Shown here: positions 19,807 to 42,137 of the stretch, piece after piece | How the letters are laid out: every line of letters starts with the position of its first letter | Numbering within the stretch: position 1 is the stretch's first letter | Assembly (NCBI GenBank): GCA_018896355.1 | Contig: JAHIMW010000115.1 | Coordinates: 1-43,905 of the forward strand | Direction: 5' to 3' | Source of the DNA: Pseudomonadota bacterium | GTDB taxonomy: Bacteria > Desulfobacterota > Syntrophia > Syntrophales > UBA5619 | DNA length: 43,905 bases | Made by a program: the position numbers and the translations under genes | Notes under the pieces: generated by a model | What the model was told of the DNA's origin: nothing | The model's database searches: none | The model's input: only the letters and a program-made list of their open reading frames with translations

Positions 19807-19826
19807 AGAGACCTCCCGTCTTCGGA

Positions 19827-19859
19827 TTTAATCTCCCTTCCTCCGGAAAGGAGATTAAA
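19827..19859 (-). other. 10-bp perfect inverted repeat in the 5' leader of the zinc-ribbon gene
   Basis: TTTAATCTCC (19827-19836) / GGAGATTAAA (19850-19859) with a 13-nt loop, about 20 nt upstream of the start codon at 19806. Confidence 0.35.
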
Positions 19860-21384: not shown

Positions 21385-21874
21385 GTGCATGGCCGGTGAT
21401 CTGCTGAAGGAAAACTTCCCGGAGGCGGTGCGGGACTGCGAAGAGTTCAGAGGGGAGACCAGCATCACCGTTGATGCGGGCAGGCTCAGAGAGGTCATGA
21501 CTTTCATGAAGGAAGAAGAGAAGCTTTGTTACGATCTTCTCCTCGACCTTGCCGGCGTCGACTTCAATGACCGCTCTCCCCGCTTCATGATCGCTTATCT
21601 GTTGCACAGCACGAAATTCAACAACAAACTCCGGATCAAAACGACGGTGGCAGAAGGCGCTTCGCTCGATACGGTCAGCGATATCTGGCTGGCGGCGGAC
21701 TACATGGAGCGGGAAGTGTATGACATGTTCGGGATTATATTCAATAACCACCCGAATTTAAAACGTATTCTTCTTACCGATGATTTTGTCGGCCACCCGT
21801 TGAGAAAGGATTTCCCCGTCAAAGGAGCGGATTTCGATCAACCGCTTCAGGTTTGCTTAGAGGAAGAACAATAA
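21377..21874 (+). CDS. nuoC: NADH-quinone oxidoreductase subunit C
   Basis: ATG at 21377 overlaps the nuoB stop (ATGGCTAA), with GGAGGA upstream. The 30-kDa subunit motif is [22 protein letters not shown]. Confidence 0.9.
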
Positions 21875-21896
21875 CGTTTTGAGGGCAAAAGAATCG

Positions 21897-23072
21897 ATGG
21901 CTGAATCCCGCTACATGACGATCAATATGGGGCCGCAGCATCCCGCAACGCACGGCGTTCTGAGGCTGCTTCTGGAGCTTGACGGGGAGATCATCGTCAA
22001 GGCCGAGCCGCACATCGGTTATCTGCATCGGGGCATCGAAAAACTGGCCGAATCCATGACCTATCCCCAGGCCCTCACGCTGACGGACCGGCTTGACTAT
22101 ACAAGCGCCCTCTCCAACAATCTTGCCTACTGCCTTGCCGTGGAGAAACTGCTGGACATCAACATACCGAAGAGGGCCCAGTATCTGCGGGTTCTGATGG
22201 CCGAACTTCAGCGGATCGCCGCCCACCTTCTCTGGCTCGCGACGCATGCGCTCGATCTGGGGGCGATGACGCTGCTCTTCTACGCCTTCCGGGAAAGGGA
22301 AACCATCATGGAGATCCTGGAATTGGCGACCGGCGCAAGGCTGACGCCGAGCTTCATCCGGATCGGCGGCCTTGCGAGCGACATTCCCGACACCTTTCTG
22401 CCCCGTGTGAAGGCGTTTGTAGAGGATTTCCCCAAGCGGATGGATGATTACGAAACGCTGCTGACGGAAAACATCATCTGGAAGAAAAGGACGACGAACA
22501 TCGCGCCGATGTCCGCGGAGGAGTGCATTCAGTACGGCGTCACGGGGCCGGTGCTGAGGGCTTCCGGCGTTTCTTACGACGTCCGAAAGGCCTATCCCTA
22601 CTCGAGCTACGAAGATTTTGACTTTGAAATCCCGCTGGGCAGGAACGGGGATGTCTATGACCGGTATCTGGTGAGACTGATAGAAATGCGGCAGTCGAAC
22701 CGGATTGTAAAGCAGGCCGCGGAGAAGCTGCCCGGCGGTCCGTTCGCCGCTGTTGACGCCCCGCTGGTTGTGCCGCCGGCTAAGGAGGAGGTGGGCCGGG
22801 ACATTGCGGCGCTGATCCGCCATTTCAAGATCATGGAGGAGGGCTTCCGGCCGCCGTGCGGCGAGGTTTACGCCTCCGTCGAATCGTCGAAGGGGGAACT
22901 CGGTTTCTATCTGATCAGCGACGGGACCAACAAGCCCTTCCGGATGAGGATCAGACCACCCTCCTTCATCAATCTGGCCGCGTTGCCGAAGATGATCGAG
23001 GGACAGATGGTCGCCGATGTCGTTGCCGCCATCGGCAGTATCGACATCGTGTTGGGAGAGATCGACAGATAG
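21897..23072 (+). CDS. nuoD: NADH-quinone oxidoreductase subunit D
   Basis: Motifs: MTINMGPQHPATHGVLRL...PHIGYLHRGIEK...; C-terminus DIVLGEIDR. The start could also be the TTG at 21879. Confidence 0.95.
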   Translation: MAESRYMTINMGPQHPATHGVLRLLLELDGEIIVKAEPHIGYLHRGIEKLAESMTYPQALTLTDRLDYTSALSNNLAYCLAVEKLLDINIPKRAQYLRVLMAELQRIAAHLLWLATHALDLGAMTLLFYAFRERETIMEILELATGARLTPSFIRIGGLASDIPDTFLPRVKAFVEDFPKRMDDYETLLTENIIWKKRTTNIAPMSAEECIQYGVTGPVLRASGVSYDVRKAYPYSSYEDFDFEIPLGRNGDVYDRYLVRLIEMRQSNRIVKQAAEKLPGGPFAAVDAPLVVPPAKEEVGRDIAALIRHFKIMEEGFRPPCGEVYASVESSKGELGFYLISDGTNKPFRMRIRPPSFINLAALPKMIEGQMVADVVAAIGSIDIVLGEIDR

Positions 23073-23079
23073 GATCATT

Positions 23080-25038: not shown

Positions 25039-25048
25039 ACGGTAAATA

Positions 25049-27607: not shown

Positions 27608-27634
27608 CTTTAACGGGTCGTTTAAGGTTTTGAT

Positions 27635-28621
27635 ATGGAACTGTACTACTATATCCTGGAAGTGGTCCTGAAAAATCTGGTCGTCATTTCGATCCTGATG
27701 CTCTTTGTCGCCTATCTCACCCTCGCGGAAAGGAAATTCCTGGGCTACCTCCAGGTCCGACTGGGACCAAACCGGGTGGGAACCTGGGGATTGCTCCAGC
27801 CCATTGCGGACGGGATAAAATCCTTTGTCAAAGAAGACATCATTCCGATCAACGCCGACAAGCCCGTTTATGTGATCGCCCCGATAATCTCGTTTGTCGC
27901 CGCCCTTTCGATGTTTGCCGTCATTCCGTTTGGCGACAGCGTCACCCTCTTCGGGCGGGAGATCAAACTGGTCATCGCGGATGTGGATATCGGGATCCTC
28001 TACATCTTCGCCATGGGTACCCTCGGGGAATACGGCATAGTCCTGGGAGGCTGGTCATCGGGCAACAAATACGCCATCCTGGGGTCGCTCCGGGCGGCGG
28101 CGCAGATGATCAGTTACGAGGTCGCGCTGGGACTCATCGTGATCGGAACGATTATTCTTTCCGGCTCCCTGCGCCTGACCGAAATTGTCGAAGCCCAGAG
28201 GGATTGCTGGTTTATCGTCTATCAACCCTTTGCCTTTCTTTTATACATTGTGGCGGCCCTGGCCGAGCTCAACCGGACGCCCTTCGACATGCCTGAATCG
28301 GAAAGCGAGCTCGCCTCCGGATTCAACATCGAGTACAGCAGCATGAAGTTCGCACTTTTCATGATTGCCGAGTATATCCATCTGGTCACGGTGGCCGCCC
28401 TGACCACGACGCTGTTTCTGGGCGGCTGGCTGGGGCCGGTTTTGCCCGGACCGGTGTGGTTTATCCTGAAAACGTGCCTGATCATCTTCATCTTCATCTG
28501 GGTCCGAGGCACCTACCCGCGGATGCGTTACGACCACATCATGAAATTCGGGTGGAAGTTCCTCTTTCCGGCGGCGCTCGCCAATGTGGTGATCACCGCC
28601 TTTATTGTGGCGCTGAGATAG
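27635..28621 (+). CDS. nuoH: NADH-quinone oxidoreductase subunit H
   Basis: 328 aa. Motifs: LAERKFLGYLQVRLGPNRVG and LAELNRTPFDMPESESEL. Confidence 0.95.
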   Translation: MELYYYILEVVLKNLVVISILMLFVAYLTLAERKFLGYLQVRLGPNRVGTWGLLQPIADGIKSFVKEDIIPINADKPVYVIAPIISFVAALSMFAVIPFGDSVTLFGREIKLVIADVDIGILYIFAMGTLGEYGIVLGGWSSGNKYAILGSLRAAAQMISYEVALGLIVIGTIILSGSLRLTEIVEAQRDCWFIVYQPFAFLLYIVAALAELNRTPFDMPESESELASGFNIEYSSMKFALFMIAEYIHLVTVAALTTTLFLGGWLGPVLPGPVWFILKTCLIIFIFIWVRGTYPRMRYDHIMKFGWKFLFPAALANVVITAFIVALR

Positions 28622-28631
28622 AGAGGCTTTT

Positions 28632-29036
28632 ATGATACTCCCTCTGCTGAAAGGGCTGAAACTGACGTTGAAGATGTTTTTTTCCAAACCGGTTACCATA
28701 CGGTATCCGGAAGAAAAAAGGGCGATATCCCCCCGCTGGCGGGGAATGCATTACTTTGAAAAAAACGGGACGGGCGAGACCGCCTGCGTGGCCTGCGGGT
28801 TATGCGTGGCCGTCTGTCCTTCGCACTGCATCACGCTGGAAATCCGGGAGCGGGAAGACGGTTCCCGCTATCCCGGAAGATATGAAATCGACGCCCTCCG
28901 ATGCATCTTCTGCGGCTTCTGCCAGGAGGCCTGTCCGGTCAACGCGATCAAATTGGGACAGAACTACGAGTACGTTCATTACGCAAGGAAAGATTTCCTG
29001 CTGACGAAGGAAAGCCTGCTTTCGGCCAAAGGATGA
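28632..29036 (+). CDS. nuoI: NADH-quinone oxidoreductase subunit I
   Basis: 134 aa with two ferredoxin motifs, CVACGLCVAVCP and CIFCGFCQEACP. Confidence 0.95.
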   Translation: MILPLLKGLKLTLKMFFSKPVTIRYPEEKRAISPRWRGMHYFEKNGTGETACVACGLCVAVCPSHCITLEIREREDGSRYPGRYEIDALRCIFCGFCQEACPVNAIKLGQNYEYVHYARKDFLLTKESLLSAKG

Positions 29037-29040
29037 AAAG

Positions 29041-29577
29041 ATGGATGCGATAGGATTCAAGTTCATACTGTTCATGATTACGGCGCTCGTGGTCATCGTC
29101 TCTTCGGTACTGATGGCAACCCGGAAAAATCCCATTCACAGCGCACTGTGGATGATCGTCACCTTCTTTGCGATGGCCGTCATTTATCTGCTGCTCAACG
29201 CCCAGTTCATCGCGGTGGCCCAGGTCATGGTCTATGCCGGCGCCATCATGATGCTGATTCTCTTCGTCATCATGATGGTCAACATGGACAAGACTCAGGA
29301 GGGGGAGACAACCAGGGAAACCTGGTCATTCGGCAAAAAGATGGCCGCGGCACTGCTGATGGTCATCCTGCTCGTCGAATTGCTCTTCGGCGCGCTGTTT
29401 TACCGGATGACGGCAAAGGTGGGCGATTATCCGGCCGATGCGGTCGCCGCTGCGGGGAATGCCAAAACGATGGGAGCAATGCTGTACGGACAGTATCTCT
29501 TTCCGTTCGAGATTGCATCGATCCTGCTTTTGATCGGTATTGTGGGCGCCGTCGTCATTGCCAAAAAGAACAAATGA
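29041..29577 (+). CDS. nuoJ: NADH-quinone oxidoreductase subunit J
   Basis: 178 aa, polytopic. Motifs: NPIHSALWMIVTFF and VMVYAGAIMMLILFVIMM. Confidence 0.9.
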   Translation: MDAIGFKFILFMITALVVIVSSVLMATRKNPIHSALWMIVTFFAMAVIYLLLNAQFIAVAQVMVYAGAIMMLILFVIMMVNMDKTQEGETTRETWSFGKKMAAALLMVILLVELLFGALFYRMTAKVGDYPADAVAAAGNAKTMGAMLYGQYLFPFEIASILLLIGIVGAVVIAKKNK

Positions 29578-29607
29578 CGGCGTGGTCGTCATCAACAGGA
29601 GAAAGAT

Positions 29608-29919
29608 ATGTTTCAGGAAATCCCTCCCGGCTTGTGTTTGGTATTGAGCGGCATCCTTTTTTCGATCGGGGCGATCGGTGCAATCACCCGAAGAAATGTG
29701 ATCGTCATCTTCATGTGCATCGAACTCATGCTGAACGCGGTTAATCTGGCATTCATCGCCTCCGGCAACGCATTCTCCTCGATGGACGGAGCGGTGTTCG
29801 TTTTTTTCATCATGACCGTCGCCGCCGTGGAGGCCGCGGTCGGTCTGGCCATTTTTGTGATGGTCTACCGGCTTCAGGGAACGGTCAACGCCGATGAAGT
29901 CAACCTGCTGAGAGGCTGA
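29608..29919 (+). CDS. nuoK: NADH-quinone oxidoreductase subunit K
   Basis: 103 aa with three TM helices. Motifs: CIELMLNAVNLAF and VAAVEAAVGLAI. Confidence 0.9.
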   Translation: MFQEIPPGLCLVLSGILFSIGAIGAITRRNVIVIFMCIELMLNAVNLAFIASGNAFSSMDGAVFVFFIMTVAAVEAAVGLAIFVMVYRLQGTVNADEVNLLRG

Positions 29920-29943
29920 AAAAAAGAATGAGGAAGTACATCC

Positions 29944-31926
29944 ATGGCTGAATTCATCTGGCTGATACCCTTTTTCCCGGCATTGGGATTCATCATCAAC
30001 ACCTCCCTCGGAAGTCGAACCTCGCGGAGCTTCGTTTCCTGGGTCGCCTGCCTCGCAATCTTTTTCTCCTTTCTGGCATCCCTCGCCGTTTTTCTACAGT
30101 TTCTGGAGATGCCGGCGGCGGCCAGGATCTTCGAAACCGACCTCTACAACTGGATCGCCTCGGGCGAATTTCGTGTGCCGATCGGTTTTAGGCTCGACAC
30201 CCTTTCGGTGATCATGTGCCTTGTGGTCACCGGGGTGGGTTTTCTGATCCACGTCTACTCCATCGGGTATATGCACGATGATCCCGGATTCAAGCGATTT
30301 TTCATCTACATGAACCTCTTCGTCTTCATGATGCTTCTTCTGGTGACGGGGAACAACCTGCTCTTGATGTTCGTCGGGTGGGAAGGCGTCGGCCTCTGTT
30401 CCTATCTGCTGATCGGCTTCTGGTATGAAAAGGATTCGGCGTCAACCGCCGGTAAAAAAGCCTTTATTGTCAACAGAATCGGAGACTTCGGTTTCCTGTT
30501 GGGCATCTTTCTGTTATTTGTCAGTCTGGGTGCCGAGGGGGTCTGGACGCTCAATTTCGGGGAGATACAGAATAGCGCCCATCTGCTGAACGGCAACGCC
30601 GTGACGCTGATCACGCTGCTGTTTTTTGTCGGGGCCGTCGGAAAATCGGCACAGATCCCCCTTTACGTCTGGCTGCCCGACGCGATGGAAGGTCCGACGC
30701 CGGTAAGCTCGCTGATCCATGCGGCGACCATGGTCACGGCAGGCGTCTACATGATCGCCCGGCTGAATTTTCTCTACAGCATGGCGCCGGAAACGATGAT
30801 CATTGTCGCGCTGATCGGCTTATTGACGGCATTTTTCGCCGCCTCGATCGGTTTCGCCCAGTACGACATCAAGAAGGTGCTCGCCTATTCCACGATCAGC
30901 CAGTTGGGCTTCATGTTCGTGGCGATGGGTGTGGGCGCCTATGCGGCGGGCATTTTCCATCTGATGACCCACGCCTTTTTCAAGGGCCTCCTCTTTTTGG
31001 GGGCGGGAAGCGTAATGCACGCGATGAGCGGGGAGTTGGACCTTCGAAACATGGGGGGATTGAGAAAGAAGATCCCCGTCACCTACTGGACCTTTTTTAT
31101 CGCCTGCCTGGCCATTTCCGGGATACCCGGTTTGTCAGGTTTCTTCAGCAAGGACGAGATCCTCTGGAAGGCCTTCAGCACCGGCCATACGCTGATCTGG
31201 CTGCTGGCCGCCGTAACGGCAGGCATGACCGCCTTCTACATGTTCCGGCTTTTCTTCACCATCTTTCACGGGGAGTGTCGCGCCTCCGCGGAAGTCAAAC
31301 ATCATATCCACGAATCCCCCAAGGTCATGACCATCCCGCTTACGATCCTGGCCTTTTTATCCCTTGTCGGCGGTTACGTGGGCATTCCCGCTCTACTCGG
31401 AGGAAATAACGCGATCGAACACTTTCTGGCGCCGATTTTCGGTCCGGCTGCTCCTGCTTCAACCACGGCGGGCGGTTTTGACCTGATCCCTGCGGCCTGG
31501 GCCTCCACAACGGCCGCGGCGGGCCACGATACCTCACTGGAAATGACCCTGATGGTCGCCTCCGTAATGATTGCCCTTTTCGGAATCACACTGGCCTTCA
31601 TCCTCTACGTCAAGCGGCCTGAACTTCCGGGACGTTTTGCGGCAGCCTTCTCGCGACTCTACCGCACCGTCAACAACAAGTATTTCGTCGATGAGTTTTA
31701 TGAGATGCTCTTTGTCCGGGGCACCCTGAAGGCGGGCGCCTTGCTCCTCAAGGTGGTGGACAACGGCATGATCGAAGGCGCCGTCAACGGCCTGGCCGTC
31801 GTTGTGGAACGGGCGGGCGGACGATTAAGAAGGCTGGAGACCGGTTACGTTCAGGAATATGCACTCGCCATCATCCTCGGCGCGGTGATCGTGATCGGCT
31901 ATCTTGTCGTAATACCGATGTTTTAG
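29944..31926 (+). CDS. nuoL: NADH-quinone oxidoreductase subunit L
   Basis: 660 aa antiporter-like subunit. Motifs: FVGWEGVGLCSYLLIGFW and KSAQIPLYVWLPDAMEGPTPVSSLIHAATMV. A C-terminal lateral-helix region is present. Confidence 0.95.
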   Translation: MAEFIWLIPFFPALGFIINTSLGSRTSRSFVSWVACLAIFFSFLASLAVFLQFLEMPAAARIFETDLYNWIASGEFRVPIGFRLDTLSVIMCLVVTGVGFLIHVYSIGYMHDDPGFKRFFIYMNLFVFMMLLLVTGNNLLLMFVGWEGVGLCSYLLIGFWYEKDSASTAGKKAFIVNRIGDFGFLLGIFLLFVSLGAEGVWTLNFGEIQNSAHLLNGNAVTLITLLFFVGAVGKSAQIPLYVWLPDAMEGPTPVSSLIHAATMVTAGVYMIARLNFLYSMAPETMIIVALIGLLTAFFAASIGFAQYDIKKVLAYSTISQLGFMFVAMGVGAYAAGIFHLMTHAFFKGLLFLGAGSVMHAMSGELDLRNMGGLRKKIPVTYWTFFIACLAISGIPGLSGFFSKDEILWKAFSTGHTLIWLLAAVTAGMTAFYMFRLFFTIFHGECRASAEVKHHIHESPKVMTIPLTILAFLSLVGGYVGIPALLGGNNAIEHFLAPIFGPAAPASTTAGGFDLIPAAWASTTAAAGHDTSLEMTLMVASVMIALFGITLAFILYVKRPELPGRFAAAFSRLYRTVNNKYFVDEFYEMLFVRGTLKAGALLLKVVDNGMIEGAVNGLAVVVERAGGRLRRLETGYVQEYALAIILGAVIVIGYLVVIPMF

Positions 31927-31932
31927 AAGAAT

Positions 31933-32044
31933 GTGAGGTGTGAAGGGTGAGGCGTGAAGAGTTGAGAGTTATGGGTGAAGTGTTCAATGTAAGGCGAGAA
32001 GTGCGAGGTGAAAGACACTCCTCACCCCTTACTCCTCACTCTTT
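31933..32044 (+). repeat. Array of 12 GTG-phased heptamers followed by about 4 inverted heptamers, in the nuoL-nuoM spacer
   Basis: Direct units: GTGAGGT GTGAAGG GTGAGGC GTGAAGA GTTGAGA GTTATGG GTGAAGT GTTCAAT GTAAGGC GAGAAGT GCGAGGT GAAAGAC. Inverted units: ACTCCTC ACCCCTT ACTCCTC ACTCTTT. GGTGAGG at 31945-31951 is complementary to CCTCACC at 32021-32027. The spacer is 136 nt, against 4-30 nt elsewhere in the operon. Confidence 0.75.
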
Positions 32045-32062
32045 TTGATAATGGATCGGTGA

Positions 32063-33592
32063 ATGAACATGGTATTCCCTCTGTTAAGCGCAATTATTTT
32101 TTTACCCCTGGCCGCTGCGTTTGTTTTGATACTGCTGCCGCGGAAAAACACCCTGCTGACAAAGGTTTTTACGCTCGTCTGGACGATTCTGGAATTTGGC
32201 CTCTCCCTCCCGCTGTTCTTCAATTTTAATGAAAAAACGGCGGGGATGCAGTTTATGGAAAACCTCGACTGGTTTCCCGAATTCGGCATCGGCTACACCC
32301 TCGGCGTGGACGGCATCAGCATGCTGCTGGTGCTCTTGACGACCTTCCTCACCGTGCTGTGCGTGCTCTGTTCCTGGAACGCGATCACGGACAAGGTAAA
32401 GGAATACTATGCGTCGTTCCTGCTGCTGGAAACGGCCATGCTGGGCGCCCTCTGCGCGCTGGATCTCGTCCTCTTTTACATCTTCTGGGAGCTGATGCTG
32501 GTTCCGATGTACCTGCTGATCGGCGTCTGGGGCGGCCCGCGCCGGATCTATGCGGCCATCAAGTTTTTTCTCTTTACCATGGTGGGCAGCGTCCTGATGC
32601 TGCTGGCGATCATGGCCCTCTATTTCCACTACGGCCGCGATACGGGCATCTATACCTTCAATCTGCTGGAACTCTACAAGGCGAGCATCCCCGTCGTGAA
32701 GCAATACTGGCTCTTTGCCGCCTTTGCGCTCTCCTTCGCGATCAAGGTGCCGATGTTCCCCTTTCATACGTGGTTGCCCGACGCCCATACGGAGGCGCCC
32801 ACGGCGGGCAGCGTCATTCTGGCCGGCGTCTTGCTGAAAATGGGGACTTATGGATTCCTGAGGTTTGCCATCCCCCTCTTCCCGCAGGCCGCCTTTGCCG
32901 CGGCGCCGATCATCTCCATTCTCGCACTGATCGGGATCATCTACGGCGCCATCATGTGCATCATGCAGACGGACCTGAAACGGCTGATCGCCTACTCATC
33001 GGTCAGCCACCTGGGGTATGTGATGCTCGGCATCTTTGCGTTCAACATGCAGGGGCTGGAAGGGGGCATCTACCAGATGCTCAATCACGGCATCAGCACG
33101 GGGGGGCTGTTCCTCATTGTCGGCATGATCTATGAGAGACGGCACACGCGGATGATCGCCGACTTCGGAGGTCTTTCCAAGGTGATGCCGAAGCTGGCCG
33201 TTTTTTTCATGATCATCACACTCTCCTCGATCGCGTTGCCCGGCACTAACGGCTTCGTGGGAGAATTTCTGATCCTGCTCGGCGCCTTCCGAAGCAACGT
33301 CGCTTATGGAGTGCTGGCCGCCTCCGGCGTCATTCTGGGCGCGGTGTACATGCTGTGGATGTTCCAGCGCGTGATGTTCGGACAGATTACGAATGAGGAA
33401 AACAGAGGTTTAAAAGACGTTACAAAAAGGGAAACGGTCATCCTTTGCGCGATTGTCTTTTTCATATTTTTCATGGGACTCTACTCCCAGGCTTTTTTCC
33501 GAAAGATGGACGCAACGGCCGCAGGCTATCTCCAAAACATGCAGACGAAAATTGCGAGCAGCAATCCGGCGGGACCGGTTCCGTGGAGATGA
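32063..33592 (+). CDS. nuoM: NADH-quinone oxidoreductase subunit M
   Basis: 509 aa. Motifs: FAIKVPMFPFHTWLPDAHTEAPTAGSVILAGVLLKMG. Confidence 0.95.
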   Translation: MNMVFPLLSAIIFLPLAAAFVLILLPRKNTLLTKVFTLVWTILEFGLSLPLFFNFNEKTAGMQFMENLDWFPEFGIGYTLGVDGISMLLVLLTTFLTVLCVLCSWNAITDKVKEYYASFLLLETAMLGALCALDLVLFYIFWELMLVPMYLLIGVWGGPRRIYAAIKFFLFTMVGSVLMLLAIMALYFHYGRDTGIYTFNLLELYKASIPVVKQYWLFAAFALSFAIKVPMFPFHTWLPDAHTEAPTAGSVILAGVLLKMGTYGFLRFAIPLFPQAAFAAAPIISILALIGIIYGAIMCIMQTDLKRLIAYSSVSHLGYVMLGIFAFNMQGLEGGIYQMLNHGISTGGLFLIVGMIYERRHTRMIADFGGLSKVMPKLAVFFMIITLSSIALPGTNGFVGEFLILLGAFRSNVAYGVLAASGVILGAVYMLWMFQRVMFGQITNEENRGLKDVTKRETVILCAIVFFIFFMGLYSQAFFRKMDATAAGYLQNMQTKIASSNPAGPVPWR

Positions 33593-33605
33593 AAGGTAAA
33601 AAATT

Positions 33606-35063
33606 ATGGTTGTCATGAAGCCGGAACTTGCCTTCGGCTGGATCATGCCGGAGATTGTAATTACGCTCGTCGCCGTTCTCATTTTACTTTTGTCCGCCTT
33701 TCGCCGGAAGAACGATACCGGGCGCCTTGCGGGCGGTCTGTCGCTGATCGGCGCGGCTCTCGCGCTTTTCCTGACCTTCCGGTTATGGAACGGCGACCTC
33801 GACATCTTTAACGGGCTCTACACGATCGACAACTTCGGCGTTTTTTTCAAGGCGCTGGCGCTGGTGATTTCACTTCTCGTGACGCTGTTGTCGCTTCGCT
33901 ACGTCGAACGCGAAGAGATGATCAAAGGCGAATATTACGCCCTGCTGCTGTTCGGCACTCTGGGCATGATGATCATGGTCTCCTCCAACCATTTCGTCAC
34001 GATCTTCATCGGCCTGGAGGTGATGTCCATTGCAATCTATGTCCTTTGCGGACTGCTGATCGGCAATCCCCGGTCGGCGGAGGCGTCGCTCAAATATTTT
34101 TTGCTGGGGGCCTTTGCCACCGCCTTTCTGCTGTACGGCATCGCGCTGATCTACGGCACGACCGGCATACTGGACGTCCGCGAAATCGCGCGTTATGTCA
34201 CCTCCGGTAACTTCGTGATTACACCCGCCTTCATGGCGGGGATGGCCCTGCTCATCGTGGGGTTCGGTTTCAAGACGGCCTCCGTCCCCTTTCATATGTG
34301 GACGCCCGATGTCTATGAGGGCGCCCCGACCTCCATCACCGCGTACATGGCGACCGGTGTGAAGGCTGCTGCCTTCGGCGCATTCCTCCGGGTCTTCTAC
34401 ACGGCTCTCTACCCCTTCTTGACGGAATGGACGGGCCTGTTGTGGATCATCGCCGTCGTGACAATGACCCTGGGAAACATCACCGCGCTGATGCAGAACG
34501 ATATCAAAAGGATGCTCGCCTATTCCAGCATCGCCCATGCCGGATACATTCTGATCGCCTTCGCCGTCGGCGACAGGATTTTCTCCGCAAGCATCCTCTA
34601 TTATCTCCTCGTTTACAGCTTCATGAACATCGGGGCCTTTGCGGTCGTCATCCTTCTGGGTCGGAAAGAGGCGCCCAATACGGGCATCGAATCCTATGCG
34701 GGCCTCGCGACAAGACACCCGATGATCGCGCTGTCGATGAGCGTTTTTCTGCTATCGCTGGCGGGCGTCCCTCCCCTTGCCGGCTTCATGGGCAAGTTTT
34801 ATGTCCTCAGCGACGCGATCAAAGCCGGGTATTACTGGCTGGCGATTATCGGCGTACTCAACAGCGTGGTGGCCGTTTACTATTACCTCCGGGTCATCAT
34901 GTACATGTATTTCAAGGAACCGGAAGGCGAGATCGGCGGAATTGATCGATCTCCGGCCTACGCGGTCGTGATTGGCGTCAGCATCTGGGCATTGTTCCAT
35001 ATGGGCATCTTCCCGCGCTCTTTCCTGATGATCGCGCGGGAGTCGGTCAACATCTTCATGTAG
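33606..35063 (+). CDS. nuoN: NADH-quinone oxidoreductase subunit N
   Basis: 485 aa. Motifs: FKTASVPFHMWTPDVYEGAPTSITAYM. Confidence 0.95.
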   Translation: MVVMKPELAFGWIMPEIVITLVAVLILLLSAFRRKNDTGRLAGGLSLIGAALALFLTFRLWNGDLDIFNGLYTIDNFGVFFKALALVISLLVTLLSLRYVEREEMIKGEYYALLLFGTLGMMIMVSSNHFVTIFIGLEVMSIAIYVLCGLLIGNPRSAEASLKYFLLGAFATAFLLYGIALIYGTTGILDVREIARYVTSGNFVITPAFMAGMALLIVGFGFKTASVPFHMWTPDVYEGAPTSITAYMATGVKAAAFGAFLRVFYTALYPFLTEWTGLLWIIAVVTMTLGNITALMQNDIKRMLAYSSIAHAGYILIAFAVGDRIFSASILYYLLVYSFMNIGAFAVVILLGRKEAPNTGIESYAGLATRHPMIALSMSVFLLSLAGVPPLAGFMGKFYVLSDAIKAGYYWLAIIGVLNSVVAVYYYLRVIMYMYFKEPEGEIGGIDRSPAYAVVIGVSIWALFHMGIFPRSFLMIARESVNIFM

Positions 35064-35320
35064 GGAAAAGCGGTTTGGTTTCGTAACAGGCGCGTTACCC
35101 CCACCCCGGTCAAAACCCGTGCCCGGGCCATTCCGGGGATAGCATATCGATGATCGGGAATTCTCCCCTACCCTTCGTCTCCTCCATTTTGCCGCATAAG
35201 CCTGCTCCGTTTCATATTCTTCGCTGCGGCGATAATGACGACTCTGGAGCAGGTCAATAAAGGTTGAAAATCCGAACGGATCGAAGTATGTTTACGTATA
35301 AGGTATCTATGGAGGAAGCC

Positions 35321-36229
35321 ATGTTTCAAAAAACCCCTGTTCTGGCGGCCGTGGTGGTTGCGTTTCTTATCCTTGGCCTGAGCGGCTGCGTCGCCCAGAG
35401 CGACTACCTCAGGAAACAGGCCGAGGCCGATGCCCTGAACCGTGATCTGGCGGCCCGGACGTCGCAAAACAGCGACTTGAAGGCGCAAATTGATAAGTTG
35501 ACGGCCGCAACGGAGGGACTGATTGCGGATAAGGATGCGCTGATTGCCGATAAGGATGGGCTGATTACTGATAAGAAGAGACTGATTGCCGACACGGAGA
35601 GGTTTGAGAAGGAACGGACCGCTCTTGAAGTCCGCCTGAACAGAATCACCGAAGAGACAAGCCGGACAATCGAAGGGTTGCGGAACCATCAGATTGAACT
35701 GGAAGGCGATAAGCAGATGCTCGCGGAAAGCATCTCCCTGTTGAGGCAAACGAAAGAGGTGGAGGTCCGGAAGGTCAGCAAGACCTACGAGGATCTCCTC
35801 TCCGAGATGAAGAACGAAATCGCGCAGGGGCAGATCGCCATTACCGAGCTCAGGGGAAAACTGACCGTGGATGTTGTGGACAGGATCCTCTTCGACTCCG
35901 GTCAGACGGAAATCCGACCGGAGGGTCTGGGCGTGCTGAAGCGCGTCGTCGAGATTCTGATGACCGTGACGGACAAGGTGATTCGCGTCGAGGGACACAC
36001 GGACAGCATCCCGATCGGAGGGGCCCTCGCAAAAAGGTATCCCACAAACTGGGAGCTTTCCGCGGCGCGGGCGCTCAACGTCACCCGGTTCCTGGAAAAG
36101 GAGGGAATCGATCCCGCCCTGCTCTCGGCGGTTGCCTTTGGGGAACACCAGCCGATTGCCGAAAACGACACCCCCGAAGGGCGGGCGAGGAACCGCCGGA
36201 TCGCGATCATCCTTCTGCCAAGGGAATAA
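35321..36229 (+). CDS. OmpA/MotB-domain lipoprotein with a long coiled coil
   Basis: ATG at 35321 after GGAGGA. Lipobox LGLSGC. Coiled coil includes four 21-nt/7-aa tandem repeats (LIADKDA LIADKDG LITDKKR LIADTER, 35519-35602). C-terminal OmpA-like region: VEGHTDSIPIGG...NWELSAARALNV...NRRIAIILLP. Confidence 0.85.
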   Translation: MFQKTPVLAAVVVAFLILGLSGCVAQSDYLRKQAEADALNRDLAARTSQNSDLKAQIDKLTAATEGLIADKDALIADKDGLITDKKRLIADTERFEKERTALEVRLNRITEETSRTIEGLRNHQIELEGDKQMLAESISLLRQTKEVEVRKVSKTYEDLLSEMKNEIAQGQIAITELRGKLTVDVVDRILFDSGQTEIRPEGLGVLKRVVEILMTVTDKVIRVEGHTDSIPIGGALAKRYPTNWELSAARALNVTRFLEKEGIDPALLSAVAFGEHQPIAENDTPEGRARNRRIAIILLPRE

Positions 36230-36390
36230 TGAAACTGGGACGGCTTCGTAAAAAGACCGCAGGCAAGACGCGCGAATCCTGAGGAATGAGGCGTACTTTG
36301 GCGTACGCCGCAATGACGAAGGATGAAGTGCAACGCAGCATCCGGACTTTTTACGAAGCCGTTATGACGAAATCGGAATCAGGCGCAAAC

Positions 36391-37452
36391 ATGACGGCCC
36401 TACCCAACATCCGTGACCTCTCCCTGGAGGAGATCGAGGTTTTGATCGCCAGCCTCGGCAAGGAGAAGTACCGCGCACGGCAGATCATGAAATGGCTTTA
36501 CATCGGCGGGGCGACCTCCTTCGCGGAGATGACAACCCTCGCGCGGGAGTTCCGCACGCGGATGGAGGGGCTCACCCGAATCGCCGAACCCGCAATCGAC
36601 CGGATACAGACCGCGTCGGACGGGACGAAAAAGGTCCTCTTCCGCATCGAGGACGGTCTCTTCATCGAAAGCGTCCTGATCCCCGGACGGAACCACTGGA
36701 CCGCCTGCATCTCAACCCAGGCGGGCTGCGCGATGGGCTGCCGCTTCTGCCTGACCGGACGGCAGGGGCTCAGGCGAAACCTCCTCCCCTCCGAGATCAC
36801 CGGCCAAATGACGATGCTCCGGCGCCACACGCCCGAGGGTCCGGAGATCAAGAACATCGTTTTGATGGGAATGGGGGAACCGCTTGCGAACTACGACCAC
36901 ACCCTGAAGGCGATCCGGATCATCACCTCCGATCACGGTCTCGGTTTCTCCAACCGGAAAATCACCGTCTCCACCTGCGGCATCGCCCCTCTGATCGTGA
37001 AACTGGGAAAAGACGTCTGTGTCAACCTCGCCATCTCGCTCAACGCCCCGGACGACCGGCTACGGGATGAGCTGATGCCCGTGAACCGAAAATACCCGCT
37101 GAGGGAGCTGCTGGCCGCCTGCCGGGGCTACCCGATGCCGGGGCGGCGAATGCTGACCTTCGAGTACACCCTCATGGCCGGCGTCAACGACTCTCCGGCG
37201 GATGCGGAAAAACTGGCCCGCCTGCTCCGCGGCCTCCGCTGCAAGTTGAACCTCATCGCCTTCAACGAGTTTCCCGGTGCACCCTACCGGACTCCAACCC
37301 CGGAGGCGGTCTCGGCCTTTCAACAGGTTCTGCTCGACCGCCATTACACCGCCATCCTCCGCGCGAGTCGCGGCCGGGACATCCTTGCCGCCTGCGGCCA
37401 GTTGAGCGGTCAGGCCGCCCCCGGCAATGGCAATATGAGAGAATTTATGTGA
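36391..37452 (+). CDS. rlmN: 23S rRNA/tRNA adenine-C2 methyltransferase RlmN (radical SAM)
   Basis: Motifs: YRARQIMKWLY, CAMGCRFCLTG (CxxxCxxC), and C-terminal GRDILAACGQL. The start is uncertain. In-frame ATGs at 36286 and 36364 are alternatives. Confidence 0.9.
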   Translation: MTALPNIRDLSLEEIEVLIASLGKEKYRARQIMKWLYIGGATSFAEMTTLAREFRTRMEGLTRIAEPAIDRIQTASDGTKKVLFRIEDGLFIESVLIPGRNHWTACISTQAGCAMGCRFCLTGRQGLRRNLLPSEITGQMTMLRRHTPEGPEIKNIVLMGMGEPLANYDHTLKAIRIITSDHGLGFSNRKITVSTCGIAPLIVKLGKDVCVNLAISLNAPDDRLRDELMPVNRKYPLRELLAACRGYPMPGRRMLTFEYTLMAGVNDSPADAEKLARLLRGLRCKLNLIAFNEFPGAPYRTPTPEAVSAFQQVLLDRHYTAILRASRGRDILAACGQLSGQAAPGNGNMREFM

Positions 37453-37576
37453 ACAGATCCGCTTTACAACTTATCAAACATGATGTACGTGATAACCGCT
37501 ATCCTCAATTTTTCCCAAGTGCTTGATCAGGCCCAGGTAGAACCATTTTCGAATCTTTTTCAAGGAGAATAATAAA

Positions 37577-38143
37577 ATGAAGGTCGTTGCGTTTAACGGC
37601 AGCCCAAGAAAGGACGGCAATACATCGATCCTGATCCGTCATGTTTTCAGCGAACTTGAAAAACAGGGGATTGAAACCGATTTGGTGCAACTCTCGGAAA
37701 AAGAAATTCATGGCTGCATCGCCTGTGAGAAGTGCAGTCAAAACCGGGATCGGCATTGCGCTGTAAAAAGTGACGCCGCAAACGAATATATCGACAAGAT
37801 GCTCGGGGCAGAAGGGATTATCCTCGGCTCACCCGTTTACTTCCAGGACGTGACGCCGCAAATGAAGGCCCTGATCGATCGCACCGGCTATGTGGCGAGA
37901 TCCAACGGCAGAATGTTCAAGGACAAGGTTGGGGCATCCTTGGTTGCGTTGCGACGGTCAGGAGGGATTAGCGCTCTTGACACCATGAACCATTTTTTTC
38001 TGAGTGGACAGATGATCATTGTGGGTCGGGGAATCGCTTTTGGCCGGGAAATAGGGGAAGTAGAAAAGGACGATGAAGGGATCGGGCTTGTGAAATTACT
38101 CGGGCAAAAGATGGCCTGGCTACTTAAAAAAATATATGGGTAA
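37577..38143 (+). CDS. Iron-sulfur flavoprotein (Isf)-like NADPH-dependent FMN reductase family protein
   Basis: 188 aa. Motifs: MKVVAFNGSPRKDGNTS, and a compact Cys motif CIACEKCSQNRDRHC (CX2CX2CX7C). SD is AAGGAGAA. This is the first gene of the AT-richer block. Confidence 0.8.
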   Translation: MKVVAFNGSPRKDGNTSILIRHVFSELEKQGIETDLVQLSEKEIHGCIACEKCSQNRDRHCAVKSDAANEYIDKMLGAEGIILGSPVYFQDVTPQMKALIDRTGYVARSNGRMFKDKVGASLVALRRSGGISALDTMNHFFLSGQMIIVGRGIAFGREIGEVEKDDEGIGLVKLLGQKMAWLLKKIYG

Positions 38144-38216
38144 ACGGTCTCATCAAACATTTATTTAAATGGCAGAGCGTCGAAAGTGGAGGGTATTTTG
38201 AGAAAGGAGAACGATT

Positions 38217-38468
38217 ATGGGTGAGCAAAAGGTTAAGCTCTATTCAAGACCTGCTTGAGCATGGTGCATACAAGCAAAAGAGTTTCTTTTGCAAAAAGGT
38301 GTAGAAATTGAAGAGCATGACCTCTTGAAAAATCCATTGAGCAACGAGGAGATCCTTACATTGGTGACAACCAAAGACGGGCAGATGAGAACGCCAATTA
38401 TCACCCGGGGAGATGAAGTTATTGTCTTTGGTTATAACCGGGACAAGTTGGGAAAATTGTTTCCGTAA
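38217..38468 (+). CDS. Glutaredoxin-like (NrdH/YruB-type) thioredoxin-fold protein with in-frame TGA at the first redox position; probable selenoprotein
   Basis: AAAGGAGA lies 6 nt before the ATG at 38217. The single frame reads MGEQKVKLYSRPA-TGA-AWCIQAKEFLLQKGVEIEEHDLLKNPLSNEEILTLVTTKDGQMRTPIITRGDEVIVFGYNRDKLGKLFP, ending at TAA 38466-38468. The TGA (38256-38258) sits exactly where the first Cys of CxxC belongs. The ORF track misses the gene and shows only an antisense shadow ORF (38244..38480). Confidence 0.7.
38274..38292 (+). promoter_or_regulatory. Candidate bacterial SECIS hairpin
   Basis: GCAAAAGA-GTT-TCTTTTGC is a perfect 8-bp stem starting 15 nt after the TGA. The apical loop begins with G, 23 nt after the TGA. 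Confidence 0.5.
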
Positions 38469-38506
38469 GGACGATGTCATTGGACAGATAATGTGTTACC
38501 CCAAAA

Positions 38507-38530
38507 CTGAAATATTTTTCAGATTTTGCT
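38507..38530 (+). terminator. Weak AT-rich terminator-like hairpin after the glutaredoxin-like gene
   Basis: CTGAAA-TATT-TTTCAG followed by ATTTTGCT. The stem is short and AT-rich. Confidence 0.35.
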
Positions 38531-39022
38531 TGCACAAAGACACGGATGATGATAGCGAGCAACTACGACCCCGAGAGTTTAAATTTGTTTGAGTAATTCA
38601 TACTTAAAACGTAGGGAAATGGACAGATGACAGCAAGCGGCGTAACCTTAAAGACCAGCCTCTTATCGGATCTCCGGCAGATCTTAAAAGTCCGCATAGA
38701 AGCGGTTGTTTCGACGGTATTTTTTACGCAGTTTACAATAAAACCTTTTGAATGCCCCCTCGTTGCAAATCATCTTGGTATGGTTTCGGGCTAGATGTCT
38801 GCAATCGGGGGCTGATAAGTCATCTGCCTATTCCTGTCTGATATGAGGATGTTTTTATTAACTTTGGTAGAGAAAAAGAGGAAGAGTCTATGAATGTCGT
38901 TTAGAAAAGGATCTGGGGAAGAGGAAGGTTTCATTCATGCCATTGCAGTAAGTTTTTTTTTAAGAATTTATGAAAGGAACCGTTGAGATGTTCAATGCAT
39001 CAAATCGCAAGGGAGGTAAATT

Positions 39023-40027
39023 ATGAAGGAAGAGGAATTGTTAAGCAACAAACTCTTAGATGTAATTGAATCCTGTGGGGTGAGTAGAAGGGACTTTCTC
39101 AAATATTCCGCTGCAATGGCAGCATTATTCGGAATTTCAGAATTTGAATTTGCCACGAAAGTTGTTCAGGCAATGGAAAGTGCCTCTAAAAAACCTCCGG
39201 TTATTTGGTTGGAGGGGCAAGATTGTGCTGGATGTACCATTTCATTCACCCAGATCCTAAACCCACCTGCTTCGTCCATCATCTTAGACAAAATTTCGCT
39301 TAGATATCATGAAACCGTCATGGCTGGTGCAGGACATCTCGCTGAAAAAGTCTATCATGATACGGTAAAAGAAGGCGGGTATGTGTTAATTGTAGAAGGT
39401 TCTGTCCCCTCTGCGGATGACCGCTTCTGTATGGTGGGCGGCCGACCCTTCAAAACGATTTTAGAGGAAGCAGCCCAAAAGGCCGGAGCAATCATTGCAG
39501 TGGGAGCTTGTGCTACCTACGGTGGCATTCCTGCAGCAACTCCGTCCAAAGGTATTGGTCTCAATAAAGCTCTTCCTGGAAAGACGGTAATCAATCTTCC
39601 AACCTGTCCTGTTCATCCAGATCATTTAGCTGGAACAGTTCTCTACTTTTTGACTACAGGAAAAGTCCCCCCGCTGGACAATGTGGGCCGTCCGTTGATC
39701 TATTACGCTGAGTCGATTCATGATAACTGTAGACGGCGGGCTCATTTCGATGAAAATCATTTTCTCGAAGACTGGAATGACCCTGGTCAGAAAGAATGGT
39801 GCATGCTGCATAAAGGCTGTAAGGGGACCATGACTAACTCTGACTGTCCAATCCGAAGATGGAATGATGGGATCAGTTTCTGCATCGATTGCGGAGCTCC
39901 ATGTATGGGATGTGCACAACCAGAATTCTACCAGGAGATGTCTCCTCTTTACACTGCTGAGAGCATCATTTCAAAAAGAATCTTGGCGATGAAAGAGGCC
40001 GGCTCGTTCAAAAGAGAGAATAGCTAA
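39023..40027 (+). CDS. [NiFe] hydrogenase small subunit, Tat-exported
   Basis: 334 aa. Twin-arginine signal VSRRDFLKYSAAMAALFG. Cluster ligands: GQDCAGCTISF, GACATYGG, PTCPVHP, HDNCRRR, CIDCGAPCMGC. The C-terminus has no hydrophobic anchor. Confidence 0.9.
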   Translation: MKEEELLSNKLLDVIESCGVSRRDFLKYSAAMAALFGISEFEFATKVVQAMESASKKPPVIWLEGQDCAGCTISFTQILNPPASSIILDKISLRYHETVMAGAGHLAEKVYHDTVKEGGYVLIVEGSVPSADDRFCMVGGRPFKTILEEAAQKAGAIIAVGACATYGGIPAATPSKGIGLNKALPGKTVINLPTCPVHPDHLAGTVLYFLTTGKVPPLDNVGRPLIYYAESIHDNCRRRAHFDENHFLEDWNDPGQKEWCMLHKGCKGTMTNSDCPIRRWNDGISFCIDCGAPCMGCAQPEFYQEMSPLYTAESIISKRILAMKEAGSFKRENS

Positions 40028-40044
40028 AGGAGGGAGAATTTCAT

Positions 40045-41607
40045 ATGGCTAAGAAAATTACGATAGATCCTGTAACAAGGATTGAAGGACACTTAAAAAT
40101 TGAAATAGAGGTTGAAGGGGACAAGGTAAAGAATGCATGGAGTAGCGGAACCATGGCCCGAGGCTTTGAGGCCTTACTCCAGGGGAAGGACCCTCGAGAC
40201 GCTCCTTTCGTTACCTCCCGTTTCTGCGGGGTTTGTTATAGCGTTCATCAATTGGCCTCTGCTCGTGCTCTGGACGCGGCTTTTGGAGCAAAAGTTCCCT
40301 GGGGGGGGAATTTGATCAGAAATCTGGTCATGGGCGCCCAGTATATCTATGACCATCCACTTCATTTTTATCAGTTAAGTGCTCTCGACTATATCGATAT
40401 CATGGCTATAGCCAATTACAATGGGAAAGATAAAGATTTGTTAGCTGTGAAGAATAAGGTTGTCAACTTAGTAAAATCCAAAGATACCTATCCTCTGACC
40501 CCAAGATATAAACCTGATGGCTTCTGTGTCAAAGACCCGGAGGTTGTCATCACTGCTTTCAAACATTATATCGATGCGATGAAGATGCATGCTCACGCAA
40601 GGAATATGGGAGCGATATGGGGCGGCCACACTCCCCATTACCAGAATATTGTCGTCGGAGGGGTCACGTCATATCCGGATATCAATCAGGTTGCCCGGTT
40701 CCGCACCATGCTCGACGAGCAGGCAAAGTTTATTAATGAGGTTTACATACCGGATGTCCTGGCCTTCGGAACGGGTCCACTTTGGGAACTTGCCAAGATG
40801 GGTTTAGGAGGTGGCCATTACAACTATCTATCCTATGGGGCTCTTGAAAAGGATCCGGAAGGCAAATCTCTTGTTTTCCCACCCGGTGTCATTATGGGTT
40901 TGAACCCGGCGAATATTAAGGTTGAGCCATTTGATCCCCAAAAAATCACTGAATCAGTGAAATATGCCTGGTATAAGGAAAACAAACCTGTCCACCCTTA
41001 TCAGGGCGAACAGGTTTTTGATCTTGATAAAAAGGAAGCCTACACCTTTGTCAAAGCTCCTCGCTATAACGGTAAACCTATGGAAGTTGGACCTTTAGCA
41101 CGGATGCTTGTGGCCAAAAATCCCTCTGTTCTCGGATTAGTGGGTAAAGGTGCGAAGCCAGGCGCTGTGGCTCGCCATGCAGCCCGCGCCATTGAGACAA
41201 AACTGGTGGTAGATGCCTGTTATCAATGGTGTGATATGCTTCTTAGCGAAATGACCAAGCCTGGATTTAAAATTCACGATAAGGAGCATTGGGATCCACC
41301 GGAACGTGGTATGGGCGCTGGATTTTATGAAGCACCCCGAGGCGCCTTAGGCCATTGGATTGAAGTAGAAGGGAAAAAGATTAAGAATTATCAAGCAGTT
41401 GTTCCATCAACCTGGAATGCATCGCCTCGTGATGAGAATGGAGTTCGTGGGCAGTATGAGGAATCCCTCATCGGCGCTCCCGTCCCCGATCCTGAAAATC
41501 CCATCAATGTTGTTCGGATCATTCGTTCCTTCGATCCTTGCTTGGCTTGTGCTATCCATCTCATTGATCCAAAAACCAACGAGATCCGGAAATTTATTAT
41601 AGAATGA
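40045..41607 (+). CDS. [NiFe] hydrogenase large subunit
   Basis: 520 aa. Motifs: PVTRIEGHLKIEIEV, RFCGVCYSVH, and C-terminal DPCLACAIH followed by a cleavable tail. SD is AAGGAGGG. Confidence 0.95.
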   Translation: MAKKITIDPVTRIEGHLKIEIEVEGDKVKNAWSSGTMARGFEALLQGKDPRDAPFVTSRFCGVCYSVHQLASARALDAAFGAKVPWGGNLIRNLVMGAQYIYDHPLHFYQLSALDYIDIMAIANYNGKDKDLLAVKNKVVNLVKSKDTYPLTPRYKPDGFCVKDPEVVITAFKHYIDAMKMHAHARNMGAIWGGHTPHYQNIVVGGVTSYPDINQVARFRTMLDEQAKFINEVYIPDVLAFGTGPLWELAKMGLGGGHYNYLSYGALEKDPEGKSLVFPPGVIMGLNPANIKVEPFDPQKITESVKYAWYKENKPVHPYQGEQVFDLDKKEAYTFVKAPRYNGKPMEVGPLARMLVAKNPSVLGLVGKGAKPGAVARHAARAIETKLVVDACYQWCDMLLSEMTKPGFKIHDKEHWDPPERGMGAGFYEAPRGALGHWIEVEGKKIKNYQAVVPSTWNASPRDENGVRGQYEESLIGAPVPDPENPINVVRIIRSFDPCLACAIHLIDPKTNEIRKFIIE

Positions 41608-42137
41608 TTGATCTGACCGGACCTTCCAATTTTAAGAAAAAAGAGGAAGAGAGAAACTCTTCCCCTAATATCATCATTTTAGGAGTAGGGAATCTTCTCC
41701 TTTCCGATGAGGGAGTGGGGGTTCATGTCGCCAACGAGCTTATGAAAATGGACTTATCTCCAGAAGTTTCAGTGGTGGAAGGAGGAACAGACGGGTTTAG
41801 TCTTTTAAATATCATTACGGAAGCAGACAGATTAATCATAATTGATGCTGTAAAAGGAGATGCTCCCCCAGGTTCTATCTATCGTTTTGACATTGGCGAA
41901 GTTCAAAACTCTCCATTTGGTTTCAAAACATCGGTTCATCAGATTGGAATTTTAGAGGTCTTAGATTTATCAAACCTGATAGGAAAAACCCCCCACACCA
42001 CTGTGATCGGTATTGAACCAAAATGCTTGGAAATGGGAATGGAGCTTTCTCCAGAAATCAAGGCGAAAATTCCGAGAATTATTGAATTAATATTGGATGA
42101 GTTAAAAAGAGAGGCAAAACATCACCTGTCACCTTAA
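41604..42137 (+). CDS. Hydrogenase maturation endopeptidase (HyaD/HybD/HoxM family)
   Basis: 177 aa. Motifs: IIILGVGNLLLSDEGVGVHV, and IIIDAV. The ATGA overlaps the large-subunit stop. Confidence 0.85.
   Translation: MIDLTGPSNFKKKEEERNSSPNIIILGVGNLLLSDEGVGVHVANELMKMDLSPEVSVVEGGTDGFSLLNIITEADRLIIIDAVKGDAPPGSIYRFDIGEVQNSPFGFKTSVHQIGILEVLDLSNLIGKTPHTTVIGIEPKCLEMGMELSPEIKAKIPRIIELILDELKREAKHHLSP

Follow-up and report, generated by a model that had tools for sequence, protein, structure and literature searches.

A probable 83-residue thioredoxin-fold selenoprotein with a U-A-W-C active site, encoded on a Syntrophales contig

Glutaredoxins carrying selenocysteine (Sec, U) at the first position of a UxxC motif (Grx, pfam00462) are an established, experimentally studied family of bacterial selenoproteins (PMC1794560 Table 1; PMC9312934 table), with examples in Geobacter sulfurreducens, Moorella thermoacetica and Alkaliphilus/Clostridium sp. 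OhILAs (PMC1794560 Tables 1 and 3; PMC9312934 table, citing Kim et al. 2011). ArsC-like proteins (COG1393; 'Arsenate reductase-like protein UxxC') are also a listed selenoprotein family (PMC9312934), as is 'Distant Grx-like protein 1', of the YruB type (TIGR02196, UxxT; PMC9312934 table). In thiol-oxidoreductase selenoprotein families, rare Sec forms normally occur among abundant cysteine forms (PMC1794560). Here we describe a gene of this kind on contig JAHIMW010000115.1 of assembly GCA_018896355.1; the whole stretch analysed, 43,905 nucleotides (nt) long, is called the window. Positions 38217-38468 of its forward strand most probably (we put it at roughly 0.88) hold a gene for an 83-residue thioredoxin-fold selenoprotein with a U-A-W-C active site, whose first residue would be Sec inserted by standard UGA recoding.

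The frame consists of 83 sense codons and a TAA (38466-38468), with exactly one in-frame stop on the way, the TGA of codon 14. The local codons TGA-GCA-TGG-TGC read as U-A-W-C. In all homologous loci the ATG is preceded, at an equal distance, by GGAG or GGAGG. At this locus a mechanical list of open reading frames (ORFs) holds only a 59-aa fragment started by TTG (38289-38468) and an antisense ORF of 78 aa (38244-38480), and because of this the gene is invisible to ORF-based annotation. The antisense ORF was dismissed: the Pfam domain and the codon-level selection signal both lie in the sense frame. Elsewhere in the window, none of the 19 other TGA-bridged frames outside genes is protein-like, and a scan of all TGA-bridged frames gave no other convincing selenoprotein gene.

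An earlier note on this DNA had pointed to the strong Shine-Dalgarno (SD) site, the ATG at 38217 and the single in-frame TGA, followed after 15 nt by an 8-bp hairpin with a loop starting with G; every one of these is present where it was placed. It had also described the gene as missing from the ORF track, with an antisense shadow ORF in its stead, which is correct, though the 59-aa sense fragment is listed as well.

The TGA is conserved throughout the family. A first protein search returned only 59-aa fragments and one 83-aa protein with tryptophan at the critical column. In the DNA of these loci an in-frame TGA is found each time, with the upstream part conserved (e.g. IKIY-x-KP-x-TGA-x-W-C), and the 'W' of the 83-aa homolog is a TGA translated under genetic code 4. 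A genome scan found a 95%-identical copy with the same TGA in a Syntrophales metagenome-assembled genome (MAG; contig L014), and a metagenome scan found homologs 52-53% identical, with the motif U-G-S-C. According to a profile search of the public protein collection, the family comprises ~95 clusters at 90% identity, ~90 of them fragments of 58-60 aa; W occupies the column in each of the six 'full-length' calls, and the five that were checked are all TGA in the DNA. Altogether, TGA stands at the identical column in 16/16 distinct homologous sequences read (~14 lineages, 52-95% amino-acid identity, plus 115-aa Spx-like relatives).

Cysteine forms lie outside the family: Cys occupies the active site in 0 of the ~95 family clusters. 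An exhaustive HMMER search of 1.84 billion representatives, with a 66%-identical homolog (P0003) as query, yielded only 80 matches at E<=1e-3. The Cys forms closest to the family are YruB-like (TPTCPWC ... AKEY) and ~34-42% identical, and distant homologs read TPTC-x-x-C. The earlier note had asked whether homologs align Cys or Sec at this column: they do, with Cys in the distant homologs and TGA in every closer relative whose DNA was read. A Chloroflexia locus (L015) was discarded as a homolog, its likeness being a chance match of 12 residues only (KAYSRPACAWC). In the representative library, four more distant YruB-like glutaredoxins (P0018, P0020, P0024 and P0028) show W at the first CxxC position (TPTW-P-H/W-C, NPSW-E-P-C); these too are probably TGA/Sec genes that were read with code 4.

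Codon-level tests were made on 8 lineages of 52-86% identity. Outside the hairpin, synonymous sites are near saturation (synonymous divergence, pS, ~0.8). Codons 2-13, which precede the TGA, have a pS of 0.82 and a ratio of nonsynonymous to synonymous divergence (pN/pS) of 0.34; the values are 0.90 and 0.36 for codons 15-19, and 0.81 and 0.29 for codons 27-83. Residues K7, Y9 and P12 are invariant yet written with 2-4 different codons. Codons 2-13 are under the same protein-level purifying selection as the remainder of the gene. Since pN/pS is equal before and after the TGA, two other readings of the locus, an untranslated leader followed by a 59-aa ORF and a pseudogene, are practically excluded.

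Only the hairpin codons 20-26 behave differently at synonymous sites: their pS drops to 0.06, at a pN/pS of 0.24. Among invariant residues with degenerate codons, minor codons fill 1/48 cells in codons 20-26 as against 60/152 elsewhere (Fisher p=5e-8, on cells that are not phylogenetically independent). The synonymous-site constraint on the hairpin is RNA-level.

These codons contain the DNA inverted repeat GCAAAAGA-GTT-TCTTTTGC, perfect over 8 bp, which is the most conserved 19-nt stretch of the coding sequence (CDS). In 16 distinct sequences all 128 stem cells are paired; where the stem differs at all, a G has replaced an A that faces U. The loop is variable at positions 2-3 (GUU, GGU, GUA, GUC), and its first G is invariant, though GAA would be synonymous. 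The family consensus, GCRAARGAGNNUCUUUUGC, has 0.01 chance occurrences expected in the window.

A rule for the spacing between UGA and apical loop is known for bacterial selenocysteine insertion sequences (SECIS) from bSECISearch. The hairpin resembles the E. coli fdhF and Moorella SelB-binding hairpins in being a stem-loop inside the ORF just 3' of the UGA, in its apical loop with a G (G-U in the window), in the 23 nt from UGA to loop, and in a sequence that is also bound by its coding role. Its invariant loop G matches the pattern of bacterial SECIS elements (PMC1794560, Fig. 4 legend), and its distance from the UGA agrees with the spacing rule.

For domain searches of the read-through product, U was read as C. 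It matches the Pfam Glutaredoxin family (PF00462) with 42.6 bits against a gathering score of 22.9 (E=7e-11), residues 6-69 covering profile positions 1-60 of 60. Curated NCBIfam models come close in several directions, and the window protein stays below the cut-off of each one tested: YruB, its best match (TIGR02196, 54.6 bits against 88.55), Uxx-star (NF041212, 45.2 against 66), Spx/MgsR (TIGR01617, 41.8 against 75.05, over residues 6-54 only), the ArsC-type selenoprotein model ArsC_rel_Se_1 (NF041106, 31.7 against 85), NrdH (TIGR02194, 27.9 against 85.75), and NF041211, NF041114 and NF047338 (36.4, 24.3 and 28.6 against 100, 72 and 97). Two further family members likewise fall below all the curated NCBIfam cut-offs tested.

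Among solved structures, the best matches are Spx 3l78 (E=1.4e-8) and then Grx 7c10 (9e-7). In the alignments with both, and with a YruB-like protein (P0014), the column of U14 is that of the first Cys of CxxC. The AlphaFold2 (AF2) model of P0003, of moderate confidence only (pLDDT 70), has the Grx topology, b1-a1-b2-a2-b3-b4-a3 (E6-10, H15-26, E31-35, H43-49, E61-64, E67-71, H75-81), helix 1 beginning right after position 14; with this model, Foldseek returns Spx, Grx and NrdH. NrdH-redoxins are marked by a C-V/M-Q-C active site and a WSGFRP motif. In the window protein the C-terminal motif is FGYNRDK, not WSGFRP.

The product thus described is a minimal thioredoxin-fold redoxin and runs collinear with glutaredoxin-like proteins of the YruB type. 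In its N-terminal half, Spx/ArsC is no more distant than Grx. Where the earlier note had seen a complete 'NrdH/YruB-type glutaredoxin-like fold', the second half of the description stands, by the Pfam match; the first is too specific, with the YruB, NrdH and Spx models all below cut-off. Its placement of the TGA at the N-terminal Cys of the CxxC motif agrees with the solved Spx and Grx structures. The invariant Pro60 aligns, in both of these structures, with the conserved proline ahead of strand 3, and corresponds to the cis-proline loop, which in proteins with a thioredoxin fold faces the active site.

From these elements a course of expression can be proposed. The ribosome would start at the ATG, behind the strong SD site, and at the UGA (38256-38258) the hairpin, with its GUU loop, would recruit SelB-GTP-Sec-tRNA(Sec). 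By the established bacterial pathway, Sec would then be inserted in place of termination, and translation would run on to the TAA at 38466. The product would function as a selenol/thiol-disulfide oxidoreductase, with Sec14 (N-terminus of helix 1) as the attacking nucleophile, Cys17 as the resolving residue and the Pro60 loop facing the site. The features of the locus are collected in Table 1.

Table 1. Positions in the window of the predicted selenoprotein gene, its elements and its upstream neighbour.
Feature	Position	Strand	Description and basis
Glutaredoxin-like CDS, probable selenoprotein	38217..38468	+	ATG to TAA, 83 residues, MGEQKVKLYSRPAUAWCIQAKEFLLQKG...GKLFP; basis: translation, Pfam, PDB alignments, full-length family conservation
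Shine-Dalgarno site AAAGGAGA	38203..38210	+	GGAG 7 nt before ATG 38217; basis: direct reading
In-frame TGA, proposed selenocysteine codon	38256..38258	+	Residue 14, first position of UxxC; basis: conserved column, structure alignments
TGC, predicted resolving Cys17 of UxxC	38265..38267	+	Cys invariant in family, codon TGC or TGT
SECIS-like hairpin	38274..38292	+	8-bp stem GCAAAAGA/UCUUUUGC, loop GUU (38282-38284), 15 nt after UGA; also encodes A-K-E-F-L-L-Q; basis: minimum free energy fold, conservation
CCA, Pro60	38394..38396	+	Invariant in family with 3 synonymous codons; aligns with Pro of 'RRPII' (Spx) and 'VPVI' (Grx)
TTG-started 59-aa fragment	38289..38468	+	Reported by gene callers instead of the full gene; mis-annotation, no separate feature
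FMN_red-family flavoprotein, upstream neighbour	37577..38143	+	Pfam PF03358 at 4e-33; compact CxxCxxCx7C motif, iron-sulfur-flavoprotein-like

The genetic code of the host is standard, since genuine stops in the window are most often TGA, which ends 13/28 Pfam-supported genes, and no reassignment of UGA has taken place. Over positions 29339-38607 the window shares 92-95% nucleotide identity with the Syntrophales contig L014. Directly after its copy of the gene, this contig carries an FdnG-type formate dehydrogenase (FDH) alpha gene with a Tat signal (10419-13502), interrupted by an in-frame TGA (10989-10991) in the hallmark motif EHQARV-U-HSATVAALAESFGRGAMTNHW (QARV-U-HSATVA...FGRGAMTNHW). The joined product matches TIGR01553 end to end, with 1445 bits against a cut-off of 814. 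For the order's reference member, Syntrophus aciditrophicus, 19 selenoproteins are listed, SelD among them (PMC1794560, Table 3). The host is a Syntrophales bacterium, and the Sec-FdhA of the sister MAG together with Syntrophus is good, if indirect, evidence that its lineage uses Sec.

Several results nevertheless weigh against a Sec-encoding gene. None of selA, selB, selC and selD is present in the 43.9-kb window or the fetched loci. ARAGORN found no tRNA, and so no tRNA-Sec, in the window or in 13 loci, and Pfam scans of 30 window ORFs returned nuo, RND efflux, an EF-G paralog (not SelB), OmpA, RlmN, Isf and NiFe hydrogenase, with no Sec machinery among them. Compensatory, two-sided stem substitutions number 0 in the 16 sequences (6/8 pairs are invariant and 2/8 show a one-sided A-U to G-U change), so covariation leaves the pairing itself unproven. 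Nor does the fold energy stand out (-9.4 kcal/mol, z ~ -1.2, range -0.5 to -1.7), and therefore the reality of the hairpin rests on conservation, not on thermodynamics. Rfam gave no SECIS or other credible RNA family, either for the whole window at the gathering threshold or for 38100-39050 at E<=10. Unlike the E. coli fdhF element, the stem is a perfect, A/U-rich one of 8 bp with a nominal 3-nt loop and without a bulged U. Finally, one close lineage (L009-L013) has lost the gene to decay, by its sequence, and the gene is thus dispensable in some relatives.

The L009-L013 copies, identical in sequence in five metagenomes, are ~84% identical to the window over 932 nt and ~91% over the gene. Their lesions (e.g. 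L009 632-875) are a change of TGG to TGA at codon 16, the loss of the closing C of the hairpin and a -1 frameshift; the upstream FMN_red flavoprotein gene is intact. Because the hairpin itself is hit, this lineage illustrates relaxed constraint. Gene callers report its copy as a chimeric ORF of 68 aa (P0005). The pseudogene is confined to the one lineage, nested among intact copies (the window, L014, L008 and all distant members), and its decay fits lineage-specific selenoprotein loss, a well-documented pattern (PMC1794560), and has no bearing on the intact copy in the window. Additional disabling mutations in close relatives had been named in the earlier note as a sign of a decaying gene: they occur, three of them, in L009-L013, while in ~14 lineages the frame is intact, with pN/pS ~0.3 on both sides of the TGA.

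This clear decay in five metagenomes, together with the lack of Sec machinery among the window and the fetched loci, is what speaks for a first alternative, namely that the window copy too is a decaying pseudogene, in which a former Cys codon (TGC or TGT) mutated to TGA and left the gene dead in this genome. We consider it very unlikely. All family members read have the TGA, even those at 52% identity, and so have the Spx-like relatives; the family has no Cys form. The frame is otherwise intact, with pN/pS ~0.3 on either side of the TGA, and synonymous sites are frozen only over the hairpin, which is not what a nonsense mutation would bring about.

A second alternative accepts translation through the UGA and proposes that it is read as Trp, Gly or Cys, by a near-cognate tRNA, a suppressor or a reassigned code, the hairpin stimulating read-through or having some other RNA role. 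In its favour, the step from UGA to Sec is deduced, and the hairpin is unlike the textbook fdhF SECIS and has no Rfam match. But the frequent use of TGA as a genuine stop in the window (13/28 genes) is incompatible with reassignment; the codon sits at the catalytic Cys column of CxxC, a signature of Sec rather than of Trp or Gly; the 23-nt spacing and invariant loop G fit the bacterial SECIS pattern; and a sister genome has a canonical Sec-FdhA. A standard amino acid at this position is therefore highly improbable, and we retain Sec.

The last alternative, in which the gene proper is confined to the 59-aa ORF starting with the TTG at 38289 and the upstream 24 codons are an untranslated leader, has on its side that public pipelines call this fragment in ~90 clusters and that it is the sole sense ORF of the mechanical list, but it is extremely improbable, as no SD site precedes the TTG whereas a strong, conserved one precedes the ATG, codons 2-13 evolve as protein (pN/pS 0.34), the fragment is devoid of strand 1, the active site and helix 1 while the full frame matches the whole Grx profile, and gene calls made through the TGA under code 4 give the full-length product.

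The surroundings of the gene are conserved over a short range only. The Cys cluster of the adjacent flavoprotein, C-IA-C-EK-C-SQNRDRH-C, is typical of iron-sulfur flavoproteins; no NCBIfam model matches this protein at E<=1e-10. It stands next to the gene in no more than the close clade (L014, L008 and L009-L010), and a functional link between the two genes, such as the flavoprotein being the physiological partner, is speculative. On the other side, the NiFe hydrogenase operon (39023-42137) is absent beside the gene in the 95%-identical L014, where synteny ends at ~38607, 140 nt past the gene. In distant lineages the neighbours are all different: MFS transporter, DUF6506, cytochrome P460, transposase, MutY-like and PfkB. 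The earlier note had remarked on a redox-themed neighbourhood that includes the hydrogenase cluster. Already the 95%-identical relative lacks the hydrogenase at this place, which therefore says nothing about function, and we rejected both a hydrogenase link and a conserved neighbourhood as indications of function.

The locus at 38607-42137 comprises genes for the hydrogenase small subunit, the large subunit and a HycI protease, and in L014 the same position is taken by FDH. Close strains with either FDH or hydrogenase at one locus are of interest for syntrophic H2/formate transfer. The hydrogenase large subunit (40045-41607) scores 737 bits with the NiFeSe_hydrog model (NF033181, cut-off 600), yet has Cys, not Sec, in its C-terminal DPCLAC motif, and is thus a Cys version of a NiFeSe-type enzyme. 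Further away, in the nuo operon (20671-35063), a 673-aa ORF (23017-25038) joins a NuoF-type 4Fe-4S region, a GltD-like Fer4_20 domain and pyridine-nucleotide-disulfide oxidoreductase domains; it replaces the canonical NuoE and NuoF, and the next gene is NuoG-like, of 852 aa, with molybdopterin domains. Two segments of more than 1 kb each (5417-6847 and 19100-20670) have no Pfam-supported ORF, and at 5918-7255, where long ORFs overlap on both strands, no domain is matched.

Public protein sets systematically contain this whole subfamily as 'hypothetical' fragments of 59 aa, and none of the curated NCBIfam models accepts it. The genes could be recovered by a model of their own, or by a rule that asks for the TGA together with the hairpin GCRAARGAGNNUCUUUUGC, and selenoproteome counts would then rise in Syntrophales and related anaerobes. 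The gene would add a predicted Sec-dependent thiol/selenol redoxin to a syntroph already investing in Sec enzymes such as FDH. It also offers a clean example of a putative SECIS frozen by dual coding and common to two protein architectures. The understanding of Sec decoding is left unchanged, Grx-like UxxC selenoproteins having been known since the mid-2000s.

Compared with the described systems, the gene is of a type already known: it would work like the listed Grx-like UxxC selenoproteins and, judged by Pfam's criterion, is a member of the Grx domain family. It shares with them a small thioredoxin fold that passes Pfam Glutaredoxin, Sec as the first residue of UxxC, a coding-region SECIS just after the UGA, and occurrence in anaerobic delta-proteobacterial and clostridial lineages. 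It differs in that the nearest Grx-type sequences recovered (TPTC/W-P-x-C ... AKEY, YruB-like) are only ~34-42% identical, and in that its clade has a P-x-U-x-W/S-C motif, a Spx/ArsC-like 'NPLSxEEIL' segment, a frozen hairpin of its own and no Cys members. With Distant Grx-like protein 1 (YruB, UxxT) and the Uxx-star families of NCBIfam (NF041212, NF041211, NF041114, NF047338), its best NCBIfam neighbours, it has in common that they are small, YruB-related and glutaredoxin-like. In contrast to these, its motif is an N-terminal UxxC, neither UxxT nor a C-terminal U-x-x-stop, and its scores are below the cut-offs.

The metagenome scan also brought up 115-aa proteins of the Spx/MgsR family, likewise with an in-frame TGA, encoded at further loci (L018 ~1286-1640; L019-L021 ~4950-5300; L022 ~1640-1990). 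They pass TIGR01617 (78.7 > 75.05), carry the motif W-x-x-U-T-T-C-R-K-AKEFLLQK, and are truncated or mis-called in public annotation. The window protein resembles these ArsC-like or Spx-MgsR-like UxxC proteins by 45% identity over the N-terminal 49 residues, with its TGA in the same column, an unchanged spacing of 15 nt and the same hairpin, GC(A/G)AA(A/G)GAGUUUCUUUUGC, which again encodes AKEFLLQ; Spx is also its best match in the PDB and by Foldseek. They, however, are ~115 aa long and have a central helical subdomain, whereas the window protein, with 83 aa, is without this insertion of ~35 residues.

The gene and its relatives form a clade of their own, mildly unusual in three respects: the absence of Cys members among ~95 clusters, the near-frozen SECIS, and the presence of the same UGA-plus-SECIS module in the 115-aa architecture. 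The last of these points to common descent of the Sec module, the helical subdomain having been gained or lost. The SECIS would be kept almost base for base because the same letters encode AKEFLLQ. Tentatively, and with somewhat less than even confidence, we propose a Sec-obligate clade of minimal redoxins that inherited its N-terminal module (strand 1, U-x-x-C and helix 1) and SECIS, with hardly a base changed, from an ancestor shared with the 115-aa Spx/MgsR-like selenoproteins, the helical subdomain having been lost (or gained) and Sec predating the split. Such a Sec-obligate ancestry would be unusual, because families of this kind normally have rare Sec and abundant Cys forms.

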